In this document: positions 6,501-59,611 of the stretch, piece after piece
Layout: the number at the start of each line of letters is the position of its first letter
How positions within the stretch are numbered: the stretch's first letter is position 1
Origin: Lytechinus pictus
Lineage: Eukaryota
NCBI RefSeq assembly: GCF_037042905.1
Contig: NC_087250.1
Coordinates: 15,936,001 to 16,000,000 of the forward strand
Reading direction: 5' to 3'
DNA length: 64,000 nucleotides
Translations under genes and position numbers: made by a program
Notes under the pieces: generated by a model
What the model saw: the letters and a program-made list of their open reading frames with translations, nothing else
Database searches by the model: none
Told to the model about the DNA's origin: nothing

Positions 6501-8302
6501 GAACTTTGGCCAAGTTGGGGGTATTTGTTGAATTACCATCATAACTTTGAAAATTTATGGATCTAGTTCATGAAACTTGGACATTAGGTTAATCAAGTAC
6601 CACTCAATATCCTGTGTGAGTTTCAGGTCACATGACCGTGGTCAATGGTCATTTAAGGTCAATGAACTTTGGCCATGTTGGGGGTATTTGTTAAATTACC
6701 ATCCTAACTCTGAAAGTTTATGGATCTAGTTCATAAAACTTGGAATATAAGAGTAATCAAGTATCACTGAACATCCCCTGTGAGTTTCAGGTCACAAAAC
6801 CAAGGTCAAAGGTCAGTTAAGGTCAATAAACTTTGGCCATGTTGGGGTAATTGTTGAATTGCCATCATAACTTGAAAGTTTATGGATAGAGTGAATGAAA
6901 TGTGGACATGGGTGTAGTTGACAAGTCTTAAGTCGCCGTTCAAATGTCATTTATGGTCAATGAAAGTGGTATTATGTCATTATATGAATGGTGTTTTTGT
7001 GAATGATTATTTTATAGTAGTTTTCAAAGTTCACACTGCTGCTATATTAAATCGCGTAATGCAGGGGAGACTGCCAGAGGGGTTCAACTTGTTTTGTTTT
7101 CACACTCTTTACAAGCATTTGATCAAATGTACATTAAAAAATTTTAACATCACATTTATTTTCTTACGTATTCTATTTTTTCAAAATTTCTTAATGTATT
7201 TCTATGTTTTTTTACATTTTTTTTTAATTGTTTTTTCAATGGAAATTGTCAGGGACTTTATTTTGACCATAAACAAGATGAAATTAATTGATTTCAATCA
7301 TTAAAAGGAAAAATAATGATAGATTTATGAATTTCGGCTTAAACACTATTTGCATTGAATTTGTACATGAATTCATGTTTTCGAGCAATTTTGGGCCTGC
7401 ATGCACTTACAAAATGTTGCGTAATTTCAGAAACACGTCAGTGGGGGTGACAGTTTTGATTTCACAAGTTGTGCGAAAAAGTCAGCGAGCGATGTAAACA
7501 AAATTTGTGCGGTGGATTTATCACGAAAACTGTCGAGGGGTGCTGAATCAGCCCCCCCCCCCGTCTTCTTAGGGTCAACTTTCAGAATTATTTTGTTATC
7601 ATTGAAGCCAGAACGTGAAACTGTATATACAGTGTCCAAACCTACTCCCATTTACCGTTATTCAATTTAATTTCCAGTACAAACGGTGATAAGATGTTAC
7701 ACCCGTTGACCACGCCGAGTAGTATCACGGAATGGCACTTGACGGCAGTCAGTTTATCCCAAACACAAGGAATGTGTATTGAAGATGATACCACTGTGAT
7801 GGTTTACCAGAAATTCTTTATTCAGCTTCATCTCCCGTACTCTGTCGTCAGGCTTGAACAGACACAGATCCTCGTCACCATCTTCAACTATGGTATTTCA
7901 CTTGCAGAGGTGGGTATAAATTCGGTTTGAAAAATAATAATAATAATTAAATAATAACGGTATATTTACCCAGGGTAGCCACTTCAGTTCTGAAAACTGT
8001 TCTCCCAGCGGGCCCTGCTGTTATTACCGGCTAAGCTAGGCTACTGATTCAGGCTTTCTGAGGAATCATTTCCTGCCGGTATCCATTTACCTCACCTGGG
8101 TTGAGTGCAGCACACTGGAGAAATTTCTTGCTGAAGGAAAACACGCCACGGCCAGGATTCGAACCCACGACCCTCTGTTTGAAAGGCAAGAGTCAGAACC
8201 ACTAGACCACAACACGCCCACTAAATAAATCATCAGCAATTTATTGCCAGCAGGGAAGTCATCATCATTCATCATCATCTTCATTATCATCATCATTATC
8301 AT

Positions 8303-8335
<33 letters not shown>

Positions 8336-11300
8336 TATCATCATCATCACCATCATCATTATCATCACCATCATCGTCATCATTATCATCATCATCATCA
8401 TCATCACTATCATCATCATCATCATCATCATTATCATCATCATCACCATTGTTGAACTCGTCAACTTGTTCAACTATGGTCTCCCTCGTTGAAGGTTTGT
8501 ACAATAGAACTTAGACCTGTTGCCCCCAAAACAACAAGGTGCCCGGGATTAAAGTTTTAGTGAGCTTGAAAGAGCACATTCCAAACTTTTGAAATGATGG
8601 ATAACTTGTCAAAATTGATCAACAATAACCAACAATAGGTTCATGAATGAATTCAGTGAGAGCATCATTACCACCACCGCTATCATAATGATCCTCATCA
8701 CCACCACCACTGTCATCATCACCACCATCATCATCACCACCATCATCACCACCATCATCATCACCACCATCATCATCACCATCTTCATCATCATTATCAT
8801 CATCACCACCACCATCATCATCACTCACCATCTTCATCATCATCAATACCATCACCACCACCACTATCATAATCATTATCATCATGATCATTAGTATCAC
8901 AGTGATGACATACCAGGAATTGTTTGTTGGGCTTGAACTCGTCACCTTGTTCAACTATGGTCCTCCTTATTGAAGGTTTGTACAATAGAACTTAGACCTG
9001 CTGCCTCCAAAACAACAAGGTGCCCGGGATTAAAGTTTTAGTGAGCTTGAAAGAGCACATTCCAAACTTTTGAAATGATGTATAACTTGTCAAAATTGAT
9101 CAACGATAACGAACAGAGGTTTACATGTATGAATGAATTCAGTGAGAGTTTCAAAGAATAGAGAAAAAAAGAAGATTGAAAGCTCGCTTGCCACGCAAGC
9201 ATGAGATGTGCACACTGTGAAATCTTGGTTAAACTTAAAGCTGTCCATCAAACATGGTGCTGAAGAAACTTGTGTATCTTGTTTTATATTCAACTTTACG
9301 ACTTGAAATTTTGACATTAGAATTATTACATTTTCATATAAGCTAATTTTCTATTTCGGGGCATTTTGAAGACCCGGGGCCGTATTCTGAACATTGTCTT
9401 TTCTCCATATTTTACCTTTCTCAGAGATATGACAAAATCGGTATTCTTGGGGATGTCATAAGTTTTGTCACAAAAATTGTCATAATTTCGTCTCTTCTCT
9501 TTAGCGCGCACCAAAAATATGCGGCTTTAAATGTGCGTAATCCTTTTATACAAGCAAGAGATATGACAAAAGTTATGACAGGGGGGTAGGGGGTAGCAGT
9601 CATAAATTTTGTCATATCTTTTAGTACCAAATATCCCGATACCCTGCCGACTGAATGTCAAGCATATAATATATGACATATATGAATTGTTTAGATTAGA
9701 TTGTGGTATTAGTTTCACTCATCATCCATGACAATTTTCAAAATTATTATTTCATGCTACAATTAGTTAGGCCCTACATATTAATTCCTCCTTTTTTTCT
9801 GTTTTCCTTCTTTTTCTACTTCTCTAAAATCCTTCACAGCTCCCTGTCTCTCTTTGTAATTAAGCGCATCAATATTTGCGTAGTTGCGCGTTGCCAACAA
9901 CTGTATTGGGGATACGCCCTACCTGTCACGGGGCCTTCCTATTGGCTAGAAGGGCTCCCACTGGGAACTAACGATGATTTTGATTGGTTTGCTTCCGAAA
10001 AAGATGGGCGTGAACTTTGAGAGATATGACAGGGAAACAACAATGTTAAGAATACCGATTTGTGACAATCATAGCGGTGTCTTATCTTGGAGAGAAATGA
10101 CAAAATTTATAACAAAAGTTATGAGTGTTCCAGAATACCACCCCAGATTACTATTTAGGGAGAATATGTTGTGAGAAGCCTTTCATGATGAAGCAGAGTT
10201 GGTTGAAAATCAGTGATTCAAAACGTCTGGAAAAAAGTACTTATTTGCAATTTTTCATCAGCTCCAAATCTTAGGATGATCTGCCATTCCTGTTCACCAT
10301 ATTTTGACAAAGGCCTCCTAGCAGTTGTCATTTGACGGGCATTTCATTGTTGGTTTGGGGGTATCAGGGGGGCGTTTCATGAAAGGACTTGTCGGACGTT
10401 TTATCCGACAAGTCCCATTTTATCCGACAGTTACCATAGTAACAGTACCTCTCAGCCAATCAACATCAGAGAAAGATGTCAGATCTGACAACTTGTCGGA
10501 TGAAAATGTTGATGAAACACTCCCCTGGTCCCATATATAGATAATCACATTTTACATGAATAGATTTGAATTCAACCACTTTTTTTTCTTCAATATTTTT
10601 AATTTGTACCAATAAATTACAGGTTTTTCATTTTGGCTGTATAAAAAAAAGATCGTTTGGGACTTAGTGTTGGTTTTGTGGTTGGTGAATTTGAAAATGG
10701 CCAATGTCTTGTTTGATTTTATTCATTTATGCCTTATCCATTTCAAGGGCCTATAACACAAAGCTTAGAAATTATTGTATACCAGTTTTTTAATATTTTT
10801 TTTTACGATCGATTGCTTTGACTACTATGTACATGTACAATTAATGGTGAAAATCAAGTCATGATTAATCCCTTACCTCTCTGTTACAATACAGGTTACA
10901 GTATGGTTTTCTGTTGAAGAGGGTCTGTGCACTGCTGAAAATCCAGCCATGCGTATGGTTTCGGTCGAGTCCAAGAATGCCGCCTCCGTTGCATTCATTG
11001 TAAGGCCGGTGGATGTAGGTACATTTGATATCAGAGTGAATGCCTCAGCAAACGGCAAGCAAGATAACGGCAAGCAAGATAGCGTCAAGAAATCACTTCT
11101 GGTCGTGGTAAGAATCAGTTATTATTTTTTTTTTTACATGTATAATGTGAAAGCTAAAAGAATGTACATGTAATTGCACCATGACCAAACAGGGGTTTTA
11201 TGAATGAAATGTACATAGATAAGTCTTTAGAATTAGAGTTAATTGCTACTATTTCGTTGGCATTCATCCGAACCATTGTATATTAAAGTCAACTTTCGTT

Positions 11301-29400: not shown

Positions 29401-32400
29401 ATGTATTGAACTCTATGCCAAGTAAAAGTTAGTAAAATAACCTTTAACGGTACTTTGCATATCGTGATCATTTGTGCATTAACAATTCAGTGGTTTTTAG
29501 TGAGGGAGAATGCATTTTGAGGCATTTTACATGAAATACGTAATTTTTCTTCATTTTGACATCATGGGTCTTTGCACGTTTTCTTTCTTTACAGTCGTGC
29601 ATGTGATATTGATATGTTTATAATGAAACATGCATGAAGTGCACTCCCTTACTTCCTTCTTATTGCATCTTACAGAAAATCAATAATTCCATTTCTTTGG
29701 CGATTCAATTCCTCCATAACCAACTTGAAAATGGATTACCGAGGATGTACGACAAGGCTATCGTCACATATGCCTTGGCAATGGCTAAAAGTACAAGGGC
29801 TAGAGATCTGAATAATGATCTATGGGCTCATAAAGAAGAGGATGGTAAGTAGACCAAATGAAAATTAGACCAAGTGGGTATTAGACTAAGTGTATTAGAC
29901 CAAGTGGAGCAATTAGACCAAATGAAAATTAGACTAAGTGTATTAGACCAAGTGGAGCAATTAGACCAAATGAAAATTAGACTAAGTGTATTAGACCAAG
30001 TGAGCAATTAGACCAAATGAATATTAGACTAAGTGTATTAGACCAAGTGAGCAATTAGACCAAATGAAAATTAGACTAAGTGTATTAGACCAAATGAAAA
30101 TTAGACTACATGTAAGTGTATTAGACCAATGAGCAATTAGACTAAGTGTATTAGACCAAGTGGAGCAATTAGACCAAATGAAAATTAGACTGTTATTTGA
30201 CCAAGTGCAGCAATTAGGCCAAATAGTAGACCAAATGACAATTTGACTAATGGAGTATCACATGTAGACCAAATAATAGACCAAATAGTGTTATGCTGTT
30301 CTTAAAAAAAAAACGTAGTCCAACTGCTGAAAGATCAAATGAATGTAAACCATATTGAATTGTAGCAGTGGCAGTTTCAACCCTCCAGTAATATGTGAAA
30401 TACTTTTTCTCTCCTATAATTTGCGACCAGACACCCCCAATCCAACAATAAGTTGTCCAAAATGAATGTTGAGATTTTCGTTGGGTTTTGAAAAAGCAAC
30501 TTCCTAAGCTTCAAAATGATACATCTTTTGTCACGATTGTTCTGCAACCGTAAGTATTTGATCAAATGGAGAAGAAATTCAGCGAGAGCTCCCGAAAATA
30601 AGGAGAAAACCAGGTTTGAAGATCGGGGGTCACCCAGGTATGGGATACATGTATGTGCACTGTGCAGTCTCTGTGAATGTTCCAAGCAGTCTGCAAACAC
30701 CATTTTCAAATAAAACTCATGAATCTTGTCTGTCATTCAACTTTACAACTTCAAATTTTGACAACTAGTACATGTATGAAGAAGAAGAATTATTTCTTTC
30801 AGAAAAGCTTATTTTTTTTAATTTGTACTGTTTGAAGACAAAATTATTGTTTTAGCTATCTAACGAGAACCCCCGGGGGGGCCACTTCCATTGACGAGTG
30901 GATACCATGCGCGACCACGGTGTCTCGAAAAGCACCCTAAACACATATTTTCCATGTTTTGAAAATGCACCCCTTAACAAGTATTGGTGTCTGAAACCCT
31001 ACCCTTAACAAATATTGGAAACAAAACTATACTCTTGGCAAGTATTCCCTGAAATGAACCCTAAACAAGTATACAGCGATATTTTATTGTTGTGACACGT
31101 GTCCGTCAGTCGTCGGTTTACCTAATTTACACACCATTTGGTTTATACGGCCCCACTTTCCTCACCTCGCGCAAATCGGGACTCTAAACACGTAGTGTTG
31201 GGGCAAAAAGGACATCCTTTATACAATATTTTAGTTTTGTTTCATCATCCCCGCAAATTTGACCCTAAACACGTAGCTTTCCTAGCGAAATAGATACCCT
31301 TTTATCATTATTTTTGTGTTTTTGACACCCTTTTCACGTTACGTACATAACGTGCCCTATCTTAAAAAAGACATCCTTTTTACGTGTTTTTTGGGTCGCG
31401 CATGGTATCCACTCGTCAATGTAAGTGGCCCCCCCCCCCGGGTTTAGCTATCTAAAGAGAACCTTCCTTTGTGACTTCTGTTGGTTTGGGATGGCTGGTC
31501 ACATTTATACTGTTTTGGTTGTAGACCAGTGATAGCTCTACGTATCATTGTAAGGCCATTTGACCATTATTTAAAGGGGAATCCAACCCAAATAAAAACT
31601 TGTTTTCATAAGGAAAAGAAAAATCAGACAAATTGATAGGTGAAAGTTTGAACAATATTGGACAAACAACAAGAAAATTATGAATTTTTAAAAGTTGTAA
31701 ATATTGGTAATCACTATACCCATGGAGACTTCAAATTGGCCGCATATGGGATGTCATAGTGATGTAAGGCAAGGACCACTCTTCCATGTACTCCAATACA
31801 TATTATGGCTAAAATGTCATTTTTCGTAAAAGTTTTATTTCAGATTATATTTTTCTTTCATGAGGACATAAAACAATATACTACCTGAGTTATATTTAGA
31901 TTACTGCCCCAGGGGAATGGGTACTTAGGAGAAAACCACAAATCCCTGATAATAAAGTACATGGCCTATGGGAAAGTTGTCCTTACCCCTTGTCATAATT
32001 TACTTACCCAGTTGCCAATTTGAAATCTACATAGTATTAGTGATCTCAATTTTAAAGCAGCTATAACTTTCTTATTGCTTGTCCGATTTCTTTCAAACTT
32101 TCACCATTCTGTTTAATTTATTTTTCTCCTTCCCAACACAACATTTTATGGCCAAGGCTGGATTCCCCTTTAACCAAAAACTGCTTATCTAATAGAAGAG
32201 AGCCAATGGAGTAAATTAGAGAGTTAAAAGGGGCCTTAGCTTTCGATCATAGCAGAATCTTCGTCGGAGGCAAAATGCCAAACATATATAGTGGAACTAC
32301 CATAATATAGACCATAGACATGCAACAGCAACACTAGAAACAAGGAGACAAAAAGGGCATTAGAGAGTTGTGATGTCCAATCAGGTTAGAGAAGGGGATG

Positions 32401-35400
32401 AAAGCAAAGGAGTAAGCAAACACAAAGGGAAGTTAGTGTAAGGCCAGTAAAAGACCTTAAACTGTGAGGGATTAAGATAATTGGGCAGGCAACATCAAAC
32501 AGGATCTGGAACATAAGAGTGATAGGGGGTATGAGGAAGAGATGAATATTAGTGAGAGGTGGGTCAAACTAATATTCATCTCTTCCTCATACCCCCTATC
32601 ACTCTTATGTTCCAGATCCTGTTTGATGTTGCCTGCCCAATTATCTTAATCCCTCACAAAGGCATAATATTTAAGCTACAGAATCGTATGATACAATATA
32701 TTTAAAAGCAATGTAATCTACTTCTGTGTTGTGGGATTCACGGTACACTACGTAATAATAATAATAGGCATTTATATAGCGCCATCTATCTAGAAATATT
32801 CTATTCCAAGGCGCGTTGTTATTATTATTACCCCGGCTTTAGCTCGAGCTGCCTCTCAGCGCTCATGCATTCAAGGAATTAGTCCTGCCGGGTACCCATT
32901 CACCTCACCTGGGTCGAGTGCAGCACAATGTGGATAAATTTCTTGCTGAAGGAAATTACTCCATGGCTGGGATTCAAACCCACGACCTTCTGTTTCAAAG
33001 TCAAAAGACTTATCCACTAGGCCACAACGCTCCATGTAGTCTTTCATGGGCAATAGTTGGTCCTAAAAAGGAGAACCCAAATGCGATGTATCGACTAGTG
33101 TGTTCTAGTCTTCTTCAGGAAAACAATATTGTCTATGGTATGCTATGCTATGCGGTAACTTTGCTTATGGTATGCCATATGTATGTGGTGATTGTCATTG
33201 ATATATTTTATTGCCATGTGATTCTTTTTAAACTCGCTACATGTTAGGGGTGCTTCAGAGATAAGTGTTAGTCATCATTAATTGCAGACGCGCACTTGAT
33301 ATGCGACACATGATCCTATTGATAAATATACAGTACATGCGTCCTCTTTGCACGATTTAACCAATGCGATGCAGCCTTTTATAACACCCATAGGTAGGAA
33401 CTTAAGTGCAAGTCTAAGTCAGACTTAAATCTTCATGAAAATAACTACCTTGTCACTAGATTTTCATAATCCGTTGTTATTATTTCACTTTCAATGTTCA
33501 GATACTGGTGCGGTCTTCTTCCCCTTGGATTCATCCCGCTATGAATATATTGGCAACCGTCCAATGTGGCGGCGGATACCGACCTCCTCCATCGATGTGG
33601 AGACTGCTGGATACGCTTTGCTAGCACAGCTTGCCTTGCACCAATATCAGAACGCTGGCAGGGTAGCCCTTTGGCTCAGTAAGCAGCAGGATTACGGTGG
33701 CGGATTCGTCTCTACTCAGGTGATGTGATAACAACTATAATAATAATAATGATAATGATAATTATAGCTGGATTTATAAAGCACTTTTTGCCTGAGGATA
33801 CAACGCGCTGCTACTATTACCCCGACTTTAGCTTTGCTGCCCATGTAGGCACTCAAGCATTCTAGGAATTTCCCAGTCACATTTGTTAGGAAGTCTGTGG
33901 ATGTTATTGACCTTGTACTTATCCTTCTATTTGACCTTGGAACTTGACCTTGTATTGTTCTTGATGGCATACGGGATACAGTTGTTGCTCTTCAAGCACT
34001 AGCCAAGTATGCTTTAACATCTCTAGTTCAGTACATTTGGCCTTGTATTTGACCTTGTATTTGACTTTGTAACTGACCTTGTGATTGACCTTGTATTGTT
34101 CTTTATGGCTTGCAGGATACAGTTGTGGCTCTACAAGCACTATCCAAGTATGCAGAGCGTCCTCAGTTCAGTAACATAAACATGGACTGCACTCTATCAA
34201 CAGGAGGGGATATTCTTAAGAGACATGTGATTGAAAATCACAATGCTAAAATACAAGAAGAAGTCAAGGTAAGCAGTGGCAAGTAACACAAAGCTTACCA
34301 ATCATTGTAGAATATCTTTAGGGCTTATACTTTTTAGCAGGCAAAATTGTCAAAAGAGCTTGTGGATATACTTGAAAAGGTTTTAGAGTTTGATCAATGG
34401 ATAAAACTTGCATCGGATGGGTTTGTTAAAGCCTGTGATCGTGCCTACGTAGTTACGTGCCCCCCCCCCCCCCATGGACATCACTACCACCTCCTTTCCA
34501 TCAACCAATCACTTCATACTTGGTCGTTATACTTTTTATGTTCTCTATCCCTCAGGTCTCTCAGTCTATCGGACATGACCTACAAATCAATTCAGTTGGA
34601 GAAGGAGTTGCTCTGGCAAATGTAAGATGTTTATTTTTTTTGTTCATCAAATCCTTTTTATAGTTAGCCTATTTTTAGTTTGGTAAATCCCCTGAAAAGT
34701 ATGTGTCACTGGCATTTATAGATTATATAAATGCCTGTTCCCCCAACCGATTGTGTTATGAAGGTTATAAACTTCGAATATGTTTTTATTAGATGAATTC
34801 ATCGGTTTTCAGAATTTAATTGACCGGGCACCTGTTCAAAATAGACCATCTGTGTTTTGGAACTTTGCCTATATAAAACACTTTCTCAGGCATGGAAATG
34901 GCTGAAAATTTCAGGATATAATCTTTTTCAGTAGTGTTCCTTTTATTTTTGTGATCTCTATTTTACAATTGGAATTGATTTTTGTATGTACATGTTAACA
35001 GGACATCAATGAAAAACAGCCTTTTGGATTTGATTGTTTCATTTTTATCCTGTATAATTATGTTGAATATGAATAAATATCCAGATATTTCAAGTTTATG
35101 CTGGCCATGAATGAAAGTAAACTGAAAAGAGAATATTATGGTTGAACATTAATGCAAGACTTCTATCTTCATCGTCTTTCTCGATAAGTTCTTTACTTTC
35201 TGCTAGAGATTCCATCCCTCAGTTTACATTTACGAGATGTGAAGCTTGCTATATTGGTCAAAGCCAGATGTGATTATAATGTACATGTATGTATCAGAAT
35301 GAAGGTTATCCAAATTTAGATGGCTAATATGAAATGATAATTGACCATTGCATGTAACTTACAAACAATTTAATAAAACGCACCAGGGACGAAGTGGTAA

Positions 35401-38400
35401 GGTAATGAGTGCAGCGTTCTGTCAGCCGGGACGTAGTCTAGGCCGGTACTTCTGAGTTGCAATGCCGCTGGAGAAAAACTTATCAATGACTTTGTACACA
35501 TGACCCAGCCCCAAGGCCAAGGCCGGCAAAACGTGACCTTTTGGCCGGCCTCGACTACATCCCTGTCAGTCAGCTTATATCTCTGCTTCCTTCTAAGGTG
35601 GAACTGCGGTACAACACTGAAAAATCTGATCTGGACACCTGCCCATTCCATCTGAACATCACTGCTGCTGAATTACCTTCTCAGGCCAATAATGGACAAA
35701 ATCTAGAAGGACTTCGAATAACAGTATGTACAAGGTGGGTTGTCTGTGCTTGAAGCCAAGTTTCAACTTTGGTATATCCCAAAAAGTGAATGTTGCTCAT
35801 CCTGTTCAGCATTAGATTGTATGAGTTTGCATACCCAAGCATAGGATGTGTAAGATGTGATATAAGATTGTTTCAGTGAAACATGTAAGATAGTAACCAC
35901 CCAAAATTAACACTAAATGTGGCTTTTATAGACTTGTGGCTGCTACAGATGGTTCCTATACACGCAATCTGCATGGGTAGCAGTTTTAGTGGTTTTCAGT
36001 GAAGGGAGCACCCATATGAGTAAGCATTAATGATTGTATGATTGCACTATTGATTGCAGGTTTACCAGTGAAGGGAACACCCATATGAGTAAACATTCAT
36101 GATTGTATGATTGCACTTTTGATTGCAGGTGTACCAGTTAAGGGAACACCCATATCAGTACTCAAATCATAACTGTATGATTCACTATTGATTGCAGGTT
36201 CACCAGTGAAGGGAACACCCATATGAATATGCATTCATACATGTAATTGTATGATTGCCCTATTGCAGGTTTACCAGTGAAGGGAACACCCATATGAGTA
36301 TGCATTCATCATTGTATGATTGCACTATTGATTGCAGGTTTACCAGTGAAGGGAACACCCATATGAGTAAGCATTCATGATTGTATGATTGCCCTATTGA
36401 TAGCAGGTTTACCAGTGAAGGGAACACCCATATGAGTTAGCATTCATGATTGTATGATTGCACTATTGATTGCCGGTTTGCTGGTGAAGGGAACACCCAT
36501 ATGAATGTGCATTCATGATTATATGATTGCACCTTTGATTGCATGTTTACCAGCGAAGGGAACACCCAAATGAGTATGCATTCATAATTGTATGATTGCA
36601 CTATTGATTGCAGGTTTACCAGTGGAGGAAACGCCCAAACGAGTATGCATTCATAATTGTATGATTGCTCTATTGTTTGCAGGTTTGCTGGTAAAGAGAG
36701 TGCCCATATGAGTTAGCATTCATGATTGTATGATTGCACTATTGCTTGCCGGTTTACCAGTGAAGGGAACACCCATATGAGTAAGCATTCATGATTGTAT
36801 GATTGCCCTATTGATTGCCGGTTTGCTGGTGAAGGGAACACCCATATGAATGTGCATTCATGATTATATGATTGCACCTTTGATTGCATGTTTACCAGTG
36901 AAGGGAACACCCAAATGAGTATGCATTCATAATTGTATGATTGCACTATTGATTGCAGGTTTACCAGTGGAGGAAACACCCAAAAGAGTATGCATTCATA
37001 ATTGTATGATTGCTCTATTGTTTGCAGGTTTGCTGGTAAAGAGAGTGCCCATATGAGTTAACATTCATGATTGTATGATTGCACTATTGCTTGCCGGTTT
37101 ACCAGTGAAGGGAACACCCAAATGAGTATGCATTCATAATTGTATGATTGCACTATTATTGTTTGCAGGTGTGCTAGTGAAGAGAATGCCCATATGAGTT
37201 AGCATTCATGATTGTATGATTGCACTATTGATTGCCAGTTTACCAGTGAAGGAACACCCAAATGAGTATGCATTCATGATTGTATGATTGCACCATTGAT
37301 TGCAGGTTTGCTGGTGAAGGGAACACCCGTACATGTATGAGTTAGCATTCATCATGGTATGATTGCACTATTGACTGCAGGTTTACCAGTGAAAGGAACA
37401 CCCTATGAGTATGCATTCATTACACTATTGATTGCAGGTTTACCAGTGAAGGGAACATCCATATGAATATGCATACTTGATTGTATGAATGCACTATTGA
37501 TTGCTGGTTTGCTGGTGAAGGGAACCCCCATATGAGTATGCAATCATGATTATATGATTGCACCATTGATTGCAGGTTTACCAGTGAAGGGAACACCTAA
37601 ATGAGTATGCATTCATGATTGTATGATTGCACTATTGATTGCAGGTTTGCTGGTAAAGAGAATGCCCATATGAGTATGCATTCATGATTTTATAACTGCA
37701 CTGTTCTTTTCAGGTTTGCCAGTGAAGGGAACACCCATATGAATATTCATATCATAACTATATGATTGCACTATTGATTGCAGGTTTACTGGTGAAGGGA
37801 ACACCCATATGAGTATTCTTGATGTAGGATTATACTCTGGATTCAAGGCTGTTGAAGACACTAAATCAGGATTGACAGGACTCAAAGAGGTACCCAATAC
37901 AAACTTTTTTATACCATTATTTACCAAGTTCTGTAATTCCAATGTTCTTTGTACACGATCGGCCTGGTTTCGGGAGGCAATGGAATAATAACCTAATAGC
38001 AATGTGTATTTGTAGCAGAGAATCTCCAGGTTTCTGCAAAGTTAAAAAGCAGGGGAAAAATCACAAGTCCTGGATGATTGCAGAACTCACATAATTTCAA
38101 AGAAAACTCGTTTTTTGAGGCCCAGGGAAAATAAAATACAAGGAAAAAATGTGAAAGATCATCAAATTAAAAGCTACATGTAGATTCATTACAAGTACAT
38201 GTAAACTGTGTGTTTGGCATGTATTTGTCTCGTATTGTCTCCATGGAAACTTATGTTTCTGTATGATTTTTACTATTCACAATTGTTTTATCATGATTTA
38301 TATGTGTCACTGAAGAGCACAGAATGTTATTTAAAACTGAAGAAAATATAATTTTTTATTCTAGCAAACAAAACGTAAGGTTTCTAATGTAGCACCACAT

Positions 38401-41400: not shown

Positions 41401-44400
41401 GGGCGGTCTAAAAATGCCAAATTCGTTTGAATGCGCAATTCTTAAGAATATCAATTTTGGTGAAATTTGAAGCTCTATAGCAAAAAATCAAGCACATGGA
41501 CCTATGTTAATTTTTGCATATTTCGAATATTAAGGTTCTAAAGTATCTATGAGCAAAGTTTGGTGAAAATGACATGGATTTCACTTTAACTGTGGAACGT
41601 CCTTAAGCTGTTGGAGCTTGAGTCTGCATATATGCGGGCTAGAGTCTGTGGGACACATGTATTACAGCAAAATCATTCATTTTCAAACAGGTTGAAGACC
41701 CTGGCGTGAAGTTAGTTTATGTTGGTTCATTCATTTAAGTATAACACTAATATATGTGAGGGTGGACTAGTGTGTGTGTGTTATGTTTAATGGGCTTTAG
41801 GAGAAAAAAAGCTTTGTGTAATCCTTTAAAATCTACTCGTACTTGTACTGATGATGTACATGTATTTAAATATGTGTCCATATTCATATTATTATTACTG
41901 TTATGTTTTTTGTTTGTGTTTATTATTATAACTGTTATTCTTATTATTATTATCATTAGTATTATGAATTGTTCTTATTAGTTATCAATATTTTTGTTTA
42001 GATTATGATGATGATATTTGTTATTATCATTATAATTATTTGTTATTTGTTTTTCTGTAACCTAGATTCCAAAGACAAGTGACCTATGCTTCACATTTTA
42101 TGCTGAAACTGAAGTGGTTGTCGGGAATGTACAAGCGGCCGCTGTTCATGTGTATGACTACTACGATCCCGGTCAGTACCTTTTACATTTGACCTATCAC
42201 CCCCAAACCCTTGATAGTCGCCCAAATTGAAATTTGCAATTTAAATCGAGCGTTTTTAAAGCACAACTTAATTTTGAAAGGGATGTACATGTATAACTCT
42301 CACTGAATTTATTTTACATTCAACCAAGTACTTGCGTGGATTCTGCTTCAGTTTCTATGCACATTGTTTTTGACATGCCTCAGTATATATTTTCTGTAGT
42401 CTGACTGAATGAACAATTCGTTTGGTCTAAAATCAATAAAGAGAAGTCACTCTTAATGTTAGATTTCCCATCAAAACCTGCTTAGTGATTGCTACATTCA
42501 TCTCTGAAAAAGGGTTTCCTTTTTTTGTTTTCTGTGATGCACAAATGCATTTTTAAAGTTCAAGTTACTTGTTTAATTGGAACTTTGTTTTAAGCTTTGT
42601 TTGAAATGTTTAAAATGGATATCATTTTGTTTTGGCAGCTTAATGCTGTCCCTTCATATTTCTAGATGTTTTATTGTCTTGTTTGCAATACAGACCTGTC
42701 CTGTACTATTTTCTACAAGCCTGGCACAGGTAGTTCCCTTTTGAACACACTGTGCTCTGAAAATGAATGTATCTGCTCTGGTGGTTCACTTAGTAAGTAT
42801 CCAGTCACCTCCTATATCCCCTCTGGCTCCTTACCCCCTCCTCCACCCACCCCCCTCCCCTCCATCTTCTTCTCCCTCTCTTCCTCGCTCACTCCTTCTC
42901 TCCCTTCTCCCTCCCTCTCCCAACCCCCCTCCTCTCCATCCTCCTCTCTACCCTCCCTCACTCTCTCTCTTTCCTTCCTCTCTCCCTCACTCCCCTCCCT
43001 TCCCTCTCTCCCTCTCTGCCCCACCCCCTCCCCCATCTTCCTCTCCCTCTTTCTTCCTTCCTACCCTCCCTCCCCTCCCTCCCTCCCCCTCTCCCTCTCC
43101 TTGCCCCCTCTCTCCCCCTTCCTCTCTTCCCCTCCCCTCCATCTTCCTCTCCCTCCCCCTCCCTCCCTCTCTCTGTCCCTTCCGTCTTTTCCCCCTCCCC
43201 TCCATGCCCCTCACCACTCTTTCTCTCCGCTTGGGCTTTTTAACCATGTCTGAATAAAATCAGTCTCATCTTATTGACCGATCGGGCGATGTACATTTTA
43301 TTTGTGTAAAAAGATTAATTTGTTTCTGTTTATTCTGTTACAAAATTCTGCAACCCTACGGGATAATATGTATGGAAATCAAATGTATGGAAATCCATCT
43401 TTGTCATATTTTTTTCTGCATGAAATTTGCACACGTCCTTTGTAAACAAAGGGAAGCACACTGAATTTTCAAGAAAACAAAGAATGTATGAATAATAATA
43501 ATAATAGCGGTATATTTACCAAGGGTAGCCAATTCTGTTCCGAAAACTGTTTTCCCAGTGGGCCCTGCTATTATTACCCCTGCTTTAGCTGGGCTGCCTA
43601 GGCACTCAAGCATTCAAGGAATTAATCCTGCCGGGACCCATTCACCTCACCTTGGTCGAGTGCAGCTCAGTGTGGATAAACCTCTTGCTGAATGAATAAA
43701 CATATCTGGACAATATTTTGAACAAATTTGTATTTTAGATGTTGACTTTGCTAGCCATCCATAGTTGTGGCAGTTCGGATCAATCTTTGTAAGACGGGGC
43801 CCAGACTTTTAAAATCAAGTCAATGTTAGCCATTGTCTTTAAGATGTAAAAATGCCTGTCTTACAACAAATTATGATTAATCTGATCAACCTTAGATGTA
43901 TGAAAATCCATCAATGTCATATTTTTTCTGCATGAAATTGATTGATGCCTATTTCAATTCTGTTACAGAGTTCTGCAACCCTACTGATCGGTGCCCTCGT
44001 TTATATTCTGCTAGTGAATTGGAGGCAACTGCCTGTCAAAGCCACAGCAGTTATGGTAAATGATAATAATAATCATAATAAACAGTTCTTGTATACCACA
44101 TATCACATTATGATTACAATTGCCCGTATTCTGAAGTTTTCTGAAGAAGGCTTAACTCAGACCATGGGTAAACTCCCTGCTAAAATTATGGGAAGCCAAA
44201 AGTGTCAAAATTTTATTAAGTTGTGTATTTCTTATGTTTACTGTGCTCTTTGCTGATTCATCGATGGTGAAGAAAATAATCTTTTTATACTTCCTAGACA
44301 ATTATGAATGATTTGAGAGCCAAATGAGCTGAAATATGATATATCTACGTACCATTAGTGATTTATGTTACAATTGGCTATCCATACTTAAACCAAAACT

Positions 44401-54546: not shown

Positions 54547-54984
54547 AACCCCATATTCCTTGCCTTTTATTTTCCTATAATTTTCCCTTTCCCCTTTAAC
54601 GTTCTTGATCGTGGATTTTTATTCATAAGGGGGACAGTGACCCTAACCCGTACCTATACGCCATATAAGTGGGGCGCAGGTGTTGGAAAGTATATGAAAT
54701 TAAGAATTGGTCAGATAACCATGATAGTGTAAACTTTAGAGATGAGTATAATAAGCTTAGATTAAAAGAAAGAGAGAGAAGGGGTTAGAGGGAGATAGAA
54801 AAATAAAACAGAGAGGGGGGGGGTATATTGAGAGTATCAATGAAATCACTTTCCTTCTTTTTTTCACTTGTTCAAGTGCTCTGTCATTCTCTATCACTAA
54901 ATCTTTCTCCTATCCCGAGGCTATTTAATAGAAATTAAATGTTCACTCCCTCCCCTTCCCCAACCCTTTCTCCTTCAGCCCGCC

Positions 54985-57900
54985 CCTCCTCATCAATCAC
55001 ATTCTCCCCCCCCCCCTCCTCATCAATCATATTCTCTCCCCCCGCCCCCTCCTCATCAATCACATTCTCTCTCTCCCTCTCCTCATCAATCACATTCTCT
55101 CTCCCTCTCCTCATCAATCACATTCTCTCTCCCCCCTCCTCATCAATCACATTTTCTCTCTCCTCATCAATCACATTCTCCCCTCCCCTTCTCATCAATC
55201 ACATTCTCTCTCCTCATCAATCACATTCTCTCCCCCCCCCCCTCCTCATCAATCACATTCTCTCTCCCTTCCTCATCAATCACATTCTCTCTCCCTCTCC
55301 TCATCAATCACATTCTCTCTCCTCATCAATCACATTCTCTCTCCCTCTCCTCATCAATCACATTCTCTCTCCCCCTCCTCATCAATCACATTCTCTCTCC
55401 TCATCAATCACATTCTCTCCCCCCCCCCCTCCTCATCAATCACATTCTCCCCTCCCCTCCTCATCAATCACATTCTCTCTCCCTCGATCCTCATCAATCA
55501 CATTCTCCCCCAACCCCTCCTCATCAATCACATTCTCTCCCCCCCCCCTCCTCATCAATCACATTCTCTCCCCCCCCCTCCTCATCAATCACATTCTCTC
55601 TCCCCTCCTCATCAATCACATTCTCTCTCCCCCCCCCTCATCAATCACATTCTCTCTCCCCTCCTCATCAATCACATTCTCTCTCCCCCTCCCTCATCAA
55701 TCACATTCTCTCTCCCCCTCCTCATCAATCACATTCTCTCTCCCCCTCCTCATCAATCACATTCTCTCTCCCCCCCCCCTCATCAATCACATTCTCTCCC
55801 CCCCCCCCTCCTCATCAATCACATTCTCTCTCCCCCTCCCTCATCAATCACATTCTCTCTCCCCCTCCTCATCAATCACATTCTCTCTCCCCCTCCTCAT
55901 CAATCACATTCTCTCTCCCCCTCCTCATCAATCATATTCTCTCCCCCGCCCCCCCCTCATCAATCACATTCTCTCTCCCCCTCCCTCATCAATCACATTC
56001 TCTCTCTCCCTCCCTCATCAATCACATTCTCTCTCCCCCTCCTCATCAATCATATTCTCTCCCCCGCCCCCCCCTCATCAATCACATTCTCTCTCCCCCT
56101 CCCTCATCAATCACATTCTCTCTCTCCCTCCCTCATCAATCACATTCTCTCTCCCCCTCCCTCATCAATCACATTCTCTCTCCCCCTCCTCATCAATCAC
56201 ATTCTCTCTCCCCCTCCTCATCAATCATATTCTCTCCCCCGCCCCCCCCCCTCATCAATCACATTCTCTCTCCCCCTCCCTCATCAATCACATTCTCTCT
56301 CTCCCTCCCTCATCAATCACATTCTCTCTCCCCCTCCTCATCAATCATATTCTCTCCCCCGCCCCCCCCCTCATCAATCACATTCTCTCTCCCCCTCCTC
56401 ATCAATCACATTCTCTCTCCCCCTCCTCATCAATCACATTCTCTCTCCCCCCCTCATCAATCACATTCTCTCTCCCCTCCTCATCAATCACATTCTCTCT
56501 CCCTCTCCTCATCAATCACATTCTCTCTCCCCTCCTCATCAATCACATTCTCTCTCCCCCCCTCCTCATCAGTCACATTCTCTCTCCCTCTCCTCATCAA
56601 TCACATTCTCTCTCCCTCTCCTCATCAATCACATTCTCTCTCCCCCTCCTCATCAATCACATTCTCTCTCTCCTCATCAATCACATTCTCTCTCCCCCTC
56701 CTCATCAATCACATTCTCTCTCCCCCTCCTCATCAATCACATTCTCTCTCCCCCTCCTCATCAATCACATTCTCTCTCCCCCTCCTCATCAATCACATTC
56801 TCTCCCCCCTCCTCATCAATCACATTCTCCCCCCCCCCCTCCTCATCAATCACATTCTCTCTCCCCTCCTCATCAATCACATTCTCTCTCCCCCTCCTCA
56901 TCAATCACATTCTCTCTCCCCTCCTCATCAATCACATTCTCTCTCCCCCTCCTCATCAATCACATTCTCTCTCCCCCTCCTCATCAATCACATTCTCTCT
57001 CCCCTCCTCATCAATCACATTCTCTCCCCCCTCCTCATCAATCACATTCTCCCCCCCCCCCCTCCTCATCAATCACATTCTCTCTCCCCTCCTCATCAAT
57101 CACATTCTCTCTCCCCCTCCTCATCAATCACATTCTCTCTCCCCCTCCTCATCAATCACATTCTCTCTCCCCCTCCTCATCAATCACATTCTCTCCCCCC
57201 TCCTCATCAATCACATTCTCCCCCCCCCCCCTCCTCATCAATCACATTCTCTCTCCCCTCCTCATCAATCACATTCTCTCTCCCCCTCCTCATCAATCAC
57301 ATTCTCTCTCCCCCTCCTCATCAATCACATTCTCTCTCCCCCTCCTCATCAATCACATTCTCCCCCCCCCTCATCAATCACATTCTCTCTCCCCCTCCCT
57401 CATCAATCACATTCTCTCTCCCCCCCCTCCTCATCAATCACATTCTCTCTCCCCCTCCTCATCAATCACATTCTCTCTCCCCCTCCCTCATCAATCACAT
57501 TCTCTCTCCCTCTCCTCATCAATCACATTCTCTCTCCCCTCCTCATCAATCACATTCTCTCCCCCCCCCCTCATCAATCACATTCTCTCCCCCCCCTCCT
57601 CATCAATCACATTCTCTCTCCCCTCCTCATCAATCACATTCTCTCTCCCCCCCTCCTCATCAATCACATTCTCTCTCCCCCTCCTCATCAATCACATTCT
57701 CTCTCCCCCCCTCCTCATCAATCACATTCTCTCTCCCTCTCCTCATCAATCATATTCTCTCTCCCCCTCCTCATCAATCACATTCTCTCTCTCCTCATCA
57801 ATCACATTCTCTCTCCCCCTCCTCATCAATCACATTCTCTCTCCCCCTCCTCATCAATCACATTCTCTCCCCCTCCTCATCAATCACATTCTCCCCCCCT

Positions 57901-59125
57901 CCTCATCAATCACATTCTCCCCCCCCCTCCTCATCAATCACATTCTCTCTCTCCCCCTCCTCATCAATCACATTCTCTCCCCCCCCCTCCTCATCAATCA
58001 CATTCTCTCCCCCCCCTCCTCATCAATCACATTCTCTTCCCCCCCCCCTCATCAATCACATTCTCTCCCCCCCTCCTCATCAATCACATTCTCTCTCCCC
58101 TCCTCATCAATCACATTCTCTCTCCCCCCCCCTCATCAATCACATTCTCTCTCCCCCTCCTCATCAATCACATTCTCTCCCCCCCCCCTCCTCATCAATC
58201 ACATTCTCTCTCCCCCCCCCCTCCTCATCAATCACATTCTCTCCCCCCCCCCCTCCTCATCAATCACATTCTCCCCCCCCCCCTCCTCATCAATCACATT
58301 CTCTCCCCCCCCCCTCCTCATCAATCACATTCTCTCTCCCCATCCTCATCAATCACATTCTCTCTCCCCCCCTCCTCATCAATCCTATTCTCTCTCCCCC
58401 CTCCTCATCAATCACATTCTCTCTCCCCCCCTCCTCATCAGTCACATTCTCTCCCCCCCCCCCTCCTCATCAATCACATTCTCTCTCCCCATCCTCATCA
58501 ATCACATTCTCTCTCCCCCCCTCCTCATCAATCCTATTCTCTCTCCCCCCTCCTCATCAATCACATTATCTCTCCCTCGATCCTCATCAATCACATTCTC
58601 CCCCCCCCCTCCTCATCAATCACATTCTCTCCCCCCCCTCCTCATCAATCACATTCTCTCTCCCCCTCCTCATCAATCACATTCTCTCCCCCCCCCTCCT
58701 CATCAATCACATTTTCTCCCCCCCCCCTCCTCATCAATCACATTCTCTTCCCCCCCCTCATCAATCACATTCTCTCTCCCCCCTCCTCATCAATCACATT
58801 CTCTCTCCCCCCCCCCCCCTCCTCATCAATCACATTTTCTCTCCCCCTCCCCATCCTCATCAATCACATTATCTCCCCCCCCCCTCATCAATCACATTCT
58901 CTCCCCCCCCCCCTCCTCATCAATCACATTCTCCCCCCCCCCCCTCCTCATCAATCACATTCTCTCTCCCCCCTCCTCCTCATCAATCACATTCTCTCCC
59001 CCCCCCCCCTCCTCATCAATCACACTCTCTCTCCCCCCCCCCTCATCAATCACATTCTCCCCCCCTCCTCATCAATCACATTCTCTCCCCCCCCCCCCCT
59101 CCTCATCAATCACATTCTCTCTCCC
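54985..59125. repeat. ~4.1-kb minisatellite: constant core CTCATCAATCACATTCT plus variable C/T spacer (roughly 150 units)
   Basis: Direct reading; + strand almost devoid of G. Confidence 0.97.
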
Positions 59126-59611
59126 CCTCCTCCCCACCCTCTCTCTTGCTCTCTCCCATCTCTTCCTCTAGCTGTCTCGATTAGTTTTATCTTTATTCAT
59201 TCATTGAATACATTTATCATATCTTATCGGATGCTGAGTAAATCTGCCAACAACTATATGAAAAAATATCCAACTTAGGTTATTAGAATAATAGAAAGAG
59301 CTCACGAGAAGGGGTTCAAATATTGGGCAAATATTAAAGTGTAGAGTGTAACATTCGTCCACCAAGCACTACTTGCAGATTCCATTGTCGTGAGTATTGA
59401 TTGTTTTTTAATCGTGACAATCCATATGCTTATAACAAAGGCGAAATGAGTGTGATCAAAGTCCCAAATTCATTTGGAAATTCAGTATTGTAAAGTTAAT
59501 TATCAATATTTTTGTGCATGAATCATTTACAGTAATATCATTAATGATAAATAAGGAATAAAATGATTCAGTCAGATCAACGAAACCAGCTTCCCGAACG
59601 TTGGTGACAGT

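Follow-up and report, generated by a model that had tools for sequence, protein, structure and literature searches.

Mirage minisatellites, in which tandem units lie across an intron/exon boundary, are known from amphioxus, where they have been described in Adh3, the globin genes BflGb6 and BflGb9, troponin C and PGBD5 (PMC3087553, PMC3902484). In the parts of these accounts used here, mirages are reported to be unstable in length and to leave splicing undisturbed (PMC3087553, PMC3902484), and their units are given as 10–160 bp long (PMC3087553). In the model of Rogers, as far as it was consulted, an intron is gained by exonic tandem duplication using AG/GT (PMC3443670, PMC4974935). The human CBS allele 844ins68 is described in the portions drawn on as a 68-bp duplication of a 3' splice site of which the distal copy is chosen (PMC1802585, PMC2630376). 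Recursive splicing, in the section used, is placed in introns of more than 10 kb with removed segments of at least 2 kb (PMC8758631).

The locus analysed here lies in a window of 64 000 nt (the whole stretch of Lytechinus pictus DNA that was analysed), in which a tandem array directly precedes an exon of a complement C3-like gene. On balance, the array is probably a mirage-like minisatellite generated by tandem duplication of nt 1–64 of this exon; splicing is predicted to remove it entirely, so that the C3 mRNA stays essentially normal.

The array and its host gene

A single-exon search returned one match among 82 candidates, the L. pictus protein P0004, labelled complement C3-like. Twenty-four exons in the window rebuilt residues 688–1725 of P0004 exactly, with a single exact splice solution that joins 35734 to 37784 (donor at 35734/5, model acceptor at 37783/4), and the assignment of the host gene to C3 in the original prediction is thereby borne out. 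The intron so defined is 2049 nt long, mid-range for the gene (12th of 23 by length). The exon behind the array had been called exon 17; it is the 17th in the window and not the 17th of the gene, residues 1–686 being encoded upstream. Exon numbers below refer to the window. Pfam placed A2M_recep (MG8) at residues 1450–1547 of P0004 and NTR/C345C at residues 1592–1689. Eight residues of the 37784 exon were invariant across seven echinoderm C3s (an alignment of 7 out of 31 homologues). Since no unit of the array encodes the second half of this conserved peptide in frame, only the AG at 37783 yields it, as had been proposed for the last unit alone. The use of 37784 as acceptor is thus a prediction from the annotated protein P0004 and from the conservation of the peptide.

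The array was located at 35991–37783, directly 5' of the exon start. Tandem Repeats Finder reported a 69-bp array at 35997–37816 with 26.4 copies and a score of 2304, far above chance, so that its presence in front of a C3 exon is confirmed. Cut at each match to the exon start, the array falls into 26 upstream units, followed by the real exon start at 37784; ~30 copies had been estimated. The unit, put at ~60 bp in the original prediction, measured 69 nt in 20 of the 26 and 57–75 nt in the remainder. The unit start was preceded by AG in 17/26 upstream units and by CG (four units), AT (two), CA, TG or GT in the other nine, in agreement with the expectation that most units keep the AG and some have mutated. 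GT formed the first bases of 25 units; of the claim that every unit is an AG/GT motif, the GT part therefore nearly stands, and the complete motif is carried by 17 of 26. When joined to exon 16, all 26 units reached a stop codon, whole-unit read-through being found in unit 5 only. Given the Pfam positions, decoy use would truncate both MG8 and C345C, as predicted. In-frame expansion of the protein by the array was ruled out, all decoys running into stops.

The units diverged from one another by ~15%, with a nested structure. Best-match identity was 0.97–1.0 for central units and 0.84–0.91 for units 1, 3, 25 and 26, and was likewise low for the inner units 20 and 22. Units 8–12 and 13–17 differed by 7 mismatches in 325 nt and represent a recent 345-bp duplication of five units; identity in the unit comparison was 0.887 at lag 5 versus 0.83–0.86 at other lags. 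Coordinates are collected in table 1.

Table 1. Features of the C3-like intron, its repeat array and the adjoining exons, in window coordinates.
Feature	Position	Strand	Remarks
Upstream exon (16th in window), C3-like	35598..35734	+	ends AAG, donor AAG/GTGGGT, phase 2, donor score 8.3
Unique 256-nt 5' part of intron	35735..35990	+	no significant likeness to the 'intron' half of the unit
T-rich stretch ending TTTTCAG, candidate abandoned ancestral acceptor	35980..35999	+	matrix score 5.2, inside the range of real acceptors
Unit 1, degenerate 5' edge	35991..36059	+	array start near exon start, not 'intron' half; organism B aligns to 36022
Units 2–26 of the 69-bp minisatellite, 17 decoy AGs across the array	36060..37783	+	last AG, 37782–37783, is the acceptor of the model
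Five-unit (345-bp) higher-order duplication, units 8–12 and 13–17	36476..37165	+	
TAAC branch-point-like motif	37755..37758	+	A at −27 of the used acceptor; putative role
Authentic exon, 106 nt, start of A2M_recep/MG8	37784..37889	+	donor GAG/GTACCC; peptide conserved in echinoderm C3s
Exon nt 1–64, ending TTC AAG/G, likely template of the whole unit	37784..37847	+	54/64 collinear with consensus

Further repeats were noted in and near the gene. The intron-13/exon-14 boundary was copied once (33902–34030 against 34043–34170, ~83% identity), 142 nt upstream of the original, with the AG changed and a stop in the exon part, giving a classical two-copy mirage. The 3' end of exon 4 (7871–7909) recurs in two partial copies downstream in intron 4, at 8457–8505 and 8938–8961, among CAT/TCA microsatellites, and short matches to the end of intron 20 and the start of exon 21 (28 nt at 93%; 45 nt of intron) were found at 43332–43427, 510–625 nt upstream of the originals. 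Taken together, these copies at exons 4, 14 and 21 show that local duplication recurs in the C3 gene. A 47-bp minisatellite at 29850–30190, beginning 5 nt past the exon-12 donor, was by eye not exon-like. Intron 12 also contains a near-perfect inverted repeat of ~170 nt (32476–32646) with nearly the same translation on both strands, and a 28-bp CT-rich minisatellite of 144 copies and extreme strand skew lies at 54983–59132, ~4 kb past the C3 stop codon.

For authentication of the array, contigs of four of the 18 runs listed were aligned to 35565–36059 (exon 16, intron flank and first unit). Runs X2 and X10 of organism B come from different studies, their run type being taken as DNA by guess, and differ from the window at 7–8 of 137 exon-16 bases. 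Each yielded a single contig that links exon 16 across the intron flank to 36022 and is aligned over the unique part of the intron except for a replaced stretch at 35780–35841. In X10 the contig adds 33 unit-type letters before entering a second unit; the X2 contig has unit-type letters past 36022 and then departs. Within the first unit the two thus part, one into the next unit and the other into unrelated sequence, which suggests an insertion or a structural allele. One organism B unit reads CCG where window units read CCA and the exon CTG; by CpG decay, CCG would be the expected parent of both. Contig depth in organism B was higher on the unit than on the flank, which is not a measure of copy number. 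The array and its degenerate first unit are shared with organism B, so both predate the split.

Run X1 of organism A, of unrecorded library type, accounted for 17 records, which all fall on the unit and include unit joints that match private variants of units 19 and 20. Run X3, taken as RNA by guess, contributed 0 aligned records. Since some contigs are removed by a filter, neither this blank nor the empty exon 16 and unique intron part in X1 counts as evidence. X1 is possibly the source sample, and its pattern may reflect low-level genomic or pre-mRNA material of which only multi-copy words survived assembly. In seven organism A runs, of which one was among those aligned, the share of words was 0.10, near that expected for the exon only (186/1919 = 0.097); these small shares were not counted as evidence. 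That the array is an artefact of assembly is extremely improbable. The copy number of 26 comes from the window assembly alone, and no record among the aligned contigs spans the array; against an artefact stand the ~15% divergence and nesting of the units, the link between flank and unit 1 in organism B contigs from two studies, at least two units lying behind the same intron flank, and the X1 contigs with private unit variants. The check for an artefact that accompanied the original prediction was thereby largely answered, as to its presence, in favour of a genuine array.

Probable template of the repeat unit

The original prediction took each unit to consist of the last ~30 nt of the intron and the start of the exon. 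The first of these halves is intronic today, and it aligns with exon nt 34–64: the unit consensus matched exon nt 1–64 at 54 of 64 positions, collinearly and end to end with five inserted bases, and the alignment ends on the exon's own TTC AAG/G. For the 'intron' half against the exon, 3 of 20 000 and 9 of 20 000 dinucleotide shuffles scored as high, and the score was equalled at 10 of 8860 window positions (p ~0.001 per position). The flank upstream of the array gave end-anchored scores of 9 and 16 against the same half, compared with a control median of 9 and a 90th percentile of 16. When the actual last unit was used in place of the consensus, the anchored score was 21, tied by exon 12 (one of 22 control exons), and the best score anywhere was 27, exceeded by exon 4 with 29. 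Both halves of the unit are AT-rich with GATT repeats. The statistical support for an exon origin is moderate.

Conservation of the exon peptide sets the direction of copying from exon to unit. The collinearity with exon nt 1–64, together with an array that starts near an exon start where the classical model expects a copied intron end, makes it likely that the 'intron' half is former coding sequence. As judged from these alignments, the unit probably originated from exon nt 1–64, and the acceptor was likely relocated 1.8 kb downstream onto a former Phe–Lys codon pair. On this reading the duplication extended an intron that was already there and created a new acceptor only, since the donor (35735) sits 256 nt 5' of the array.

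The two halves have diverged unequally from the exon (2/33 versus 8/31, Fisher p 0.04), which suggests a second step or selection. Within the last 25 nt, seven changes take the acceptor from a score of 2.1 to one of 7.3, a level that 3.6% of random seven-change sets attain; they include removal of an AG at about −21 and the change of AAG to CAG. Splicing at the candidate abandoned acceptor, which ends at 35999, would run into a stop, and this reading presupposes that the first 9 nt of the exon were lost between two CAG.

Choice of acceptor

Splice sites were scored with matrices trained on the other 22 acceptors and donors of the gene. By this crude measure, under which true acceptors rank 1–29 within their own introns, the used acceptor was 14th of 126 AGs and 12 decoys scored higher. 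Its rank implies that the last site is not picked by acceptor strength, and the 12 stronger decoys make some leak possible. The exon donor GAG/GTACCC (37889–37895) scored lowest among the 23 donors of the window, so that exon skipping is plausible as a minor isoform; units 11, 16 and 25 each have a stronger donor-like site (score 7.1) 8 nt from their start. What sets the last AG apart is a complete exon, the nearest donor and the TAAC motif at −27, which is shared by 3 of the 26 other sites. A clean selection of the last AG is not obvious from these scores. Exon context is known to decide between duplicated acceptors. The decoy AG varied no more than the rest of the unit, as much variation being present in 13 of 68 pairs of adjacent columns; selection against decoy AGs was rejected, AG loss not being above background turnover.

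The original prediction further proposed that the exon-16 donor could step from AG/GT to AG/GT along the array by recursive splicing. Seventeen of the 26 units carry the motif, and the donor formed anew at unit 18 would score 5.3. The common regenerated donor AAG/GTTTAC, rightly called weak, scored −0.9, below every real donor of the gene (2.1–11.1 for 23), and the value of the weakest real donor was reached by only two of the 17 AG-bearing decoys. The intron of 2049 nt compares with more than 10 kb in the available description of recursive introns (PMC8758631), and GT is merely the first two bases of the exon: the authentic junction forms the same AAG/GTTTAC, which must persist in mature mRNA. 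A ratchet of this kind is not supported and very improbable. Donor-like sites were also said to define 29-nt microexons in many units. GTATGC was indeed found in register in nine units, and GTAAGC in three only (1, 6 and 12); the TGA/GT donors scored 1.4 or less, and AG was combined with GTAAGC in unit 6 only.

Under the favoured reading, exon nt 1–64 would have been duplicated between short AG/G matches, one at the intron end and one at the exon's Phe–Lys codons, and the junction of the duplication would have supplied a new AG restoring the exact mRNA, so that the allele was viable. The ex-coding half would then have drifted or been selected towards acceptor form, with loss of the upstream AG and AAG becoming CAG, and unequal exchange would have amplified the unit, the five-unit block being the latest step. 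The spliceosome is expected to take the last AG because it alone has the complete exon, the nearest donor and the TAAC motif together, rare decoy products being cleared by nonsense-mediated decay (NMD). The array is probably harmless or neutral.

The alternative given most weight, itself unlikely, is that the decoys leak: some transcripts would use upstream AGs or skip the exon and go to NMD, and array length would shift productive C3 output. The 12 decoys that outscore the used acceptor, the weakest donor among 23 and the stops after every decoy fit such leakage, most plausibly at 37714 or 37645, which share the downstream donor. In the human ABCA7 VNTR, as far as that account was used, length tracks exon skipping, and use of the repeated sites is ~2% and independent of length (PMC5954066). 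There was no sign of selection keeping or losing the AGs, and splicing is given as regular in the mirage accounts consulted (PMC3087553, PMC3902484). Among the rows listed, three X1 contigs with a 5' loose end at the unit carry letters of the preceding unit and not of exon 16, a weak observation given the unrecorded library type. By analogy, CBS 844ins68 would argue against tuning by length, as would the known mirages. Next comes the classical origin, also unlikely, with a unit made of true intron end plus exon start, an acceptor that never moved, a chance likeness to nt 34–64 and a neutral array. It has a described mechanism (PMC3087553, in the part used), a boundary copy of this type at exon 14 of the same gene, and the anchored score of the last unit tied by one control exon; it needs a chance collinear match (p ~0.001 per position) that ends on AG/G, and the loss of an intron half before unit 1, an edge common to organism B. 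Also unlikely is a combination in which the acceptor is exon-derived, the old one 1.8 kb upstream is abandoned, and the 17 stop-bearing decoys act as a rheostat of polymorphic length, sending a share of the C3 transcript to decay.

Comparison with known systems

In the literature searched, of which coverage was partial, no description was found of an exon-derived acceptor array or of mirages in sea urchins, nor, in a literature listing of likewise partial coverage, of a publication on this C3 locus. The following comparisons refer to those parts of the cited accounts that were used. CBS 844ins68 shares with the C3 array a duplicated 3' splice site at an intron/exon junction, the distal copy being used in CBS; it has two copies only, and selection there was attributed to G runs between the sites. 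In the intron-18 VNTR of human ABCA7 the unit likewise repeats a splice site beside an exon (PMC5954066), but the repeated site is a donor and length has a measured effect on exon skipping. Recursive splice sites, or ratchet points, have the AG/GT motif in common with the array (PMC8758631) and differ from it in its short intron, weak regenerated donor and 69-nt spacing. The Rogers model has in common with the locus a duplicated exonic segment, an AG/G that becomes a splice site and an unchanged coding sequence; unlike that model, the C3 array supplies no new donor and no new intron, only the acceptor being new.

The closest likeness is to the amphioxus mirages, and the kind of array is known from them. 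Both have tandem units across an intron/exon boundary with the authentic copy at the exon (PMC3087553, PMC3902484), many but not all units keeping the splice signals (17/26 AG here), and concerted evolution with diverged edges; the 69-bp unit falls inside the mirage range of 10–160 bp (PMC3087553). The likely exon origin suggests that other mirages should be re-tested for exon-derived 'intron' halves, and the locus provides a natural experiment on how the spliceosome picks one of 18 near-identical acceptors. The C3 array differs from the amphioxus mirages in lying in a sea urchin gene, in its 26 copies against 3–6 in the globins, and in an 'intron' half that is likely exon-derived, with an acceptor that was likely moved and not copied; in this likely exon origin and relocated acceptor lies its modest novelty.
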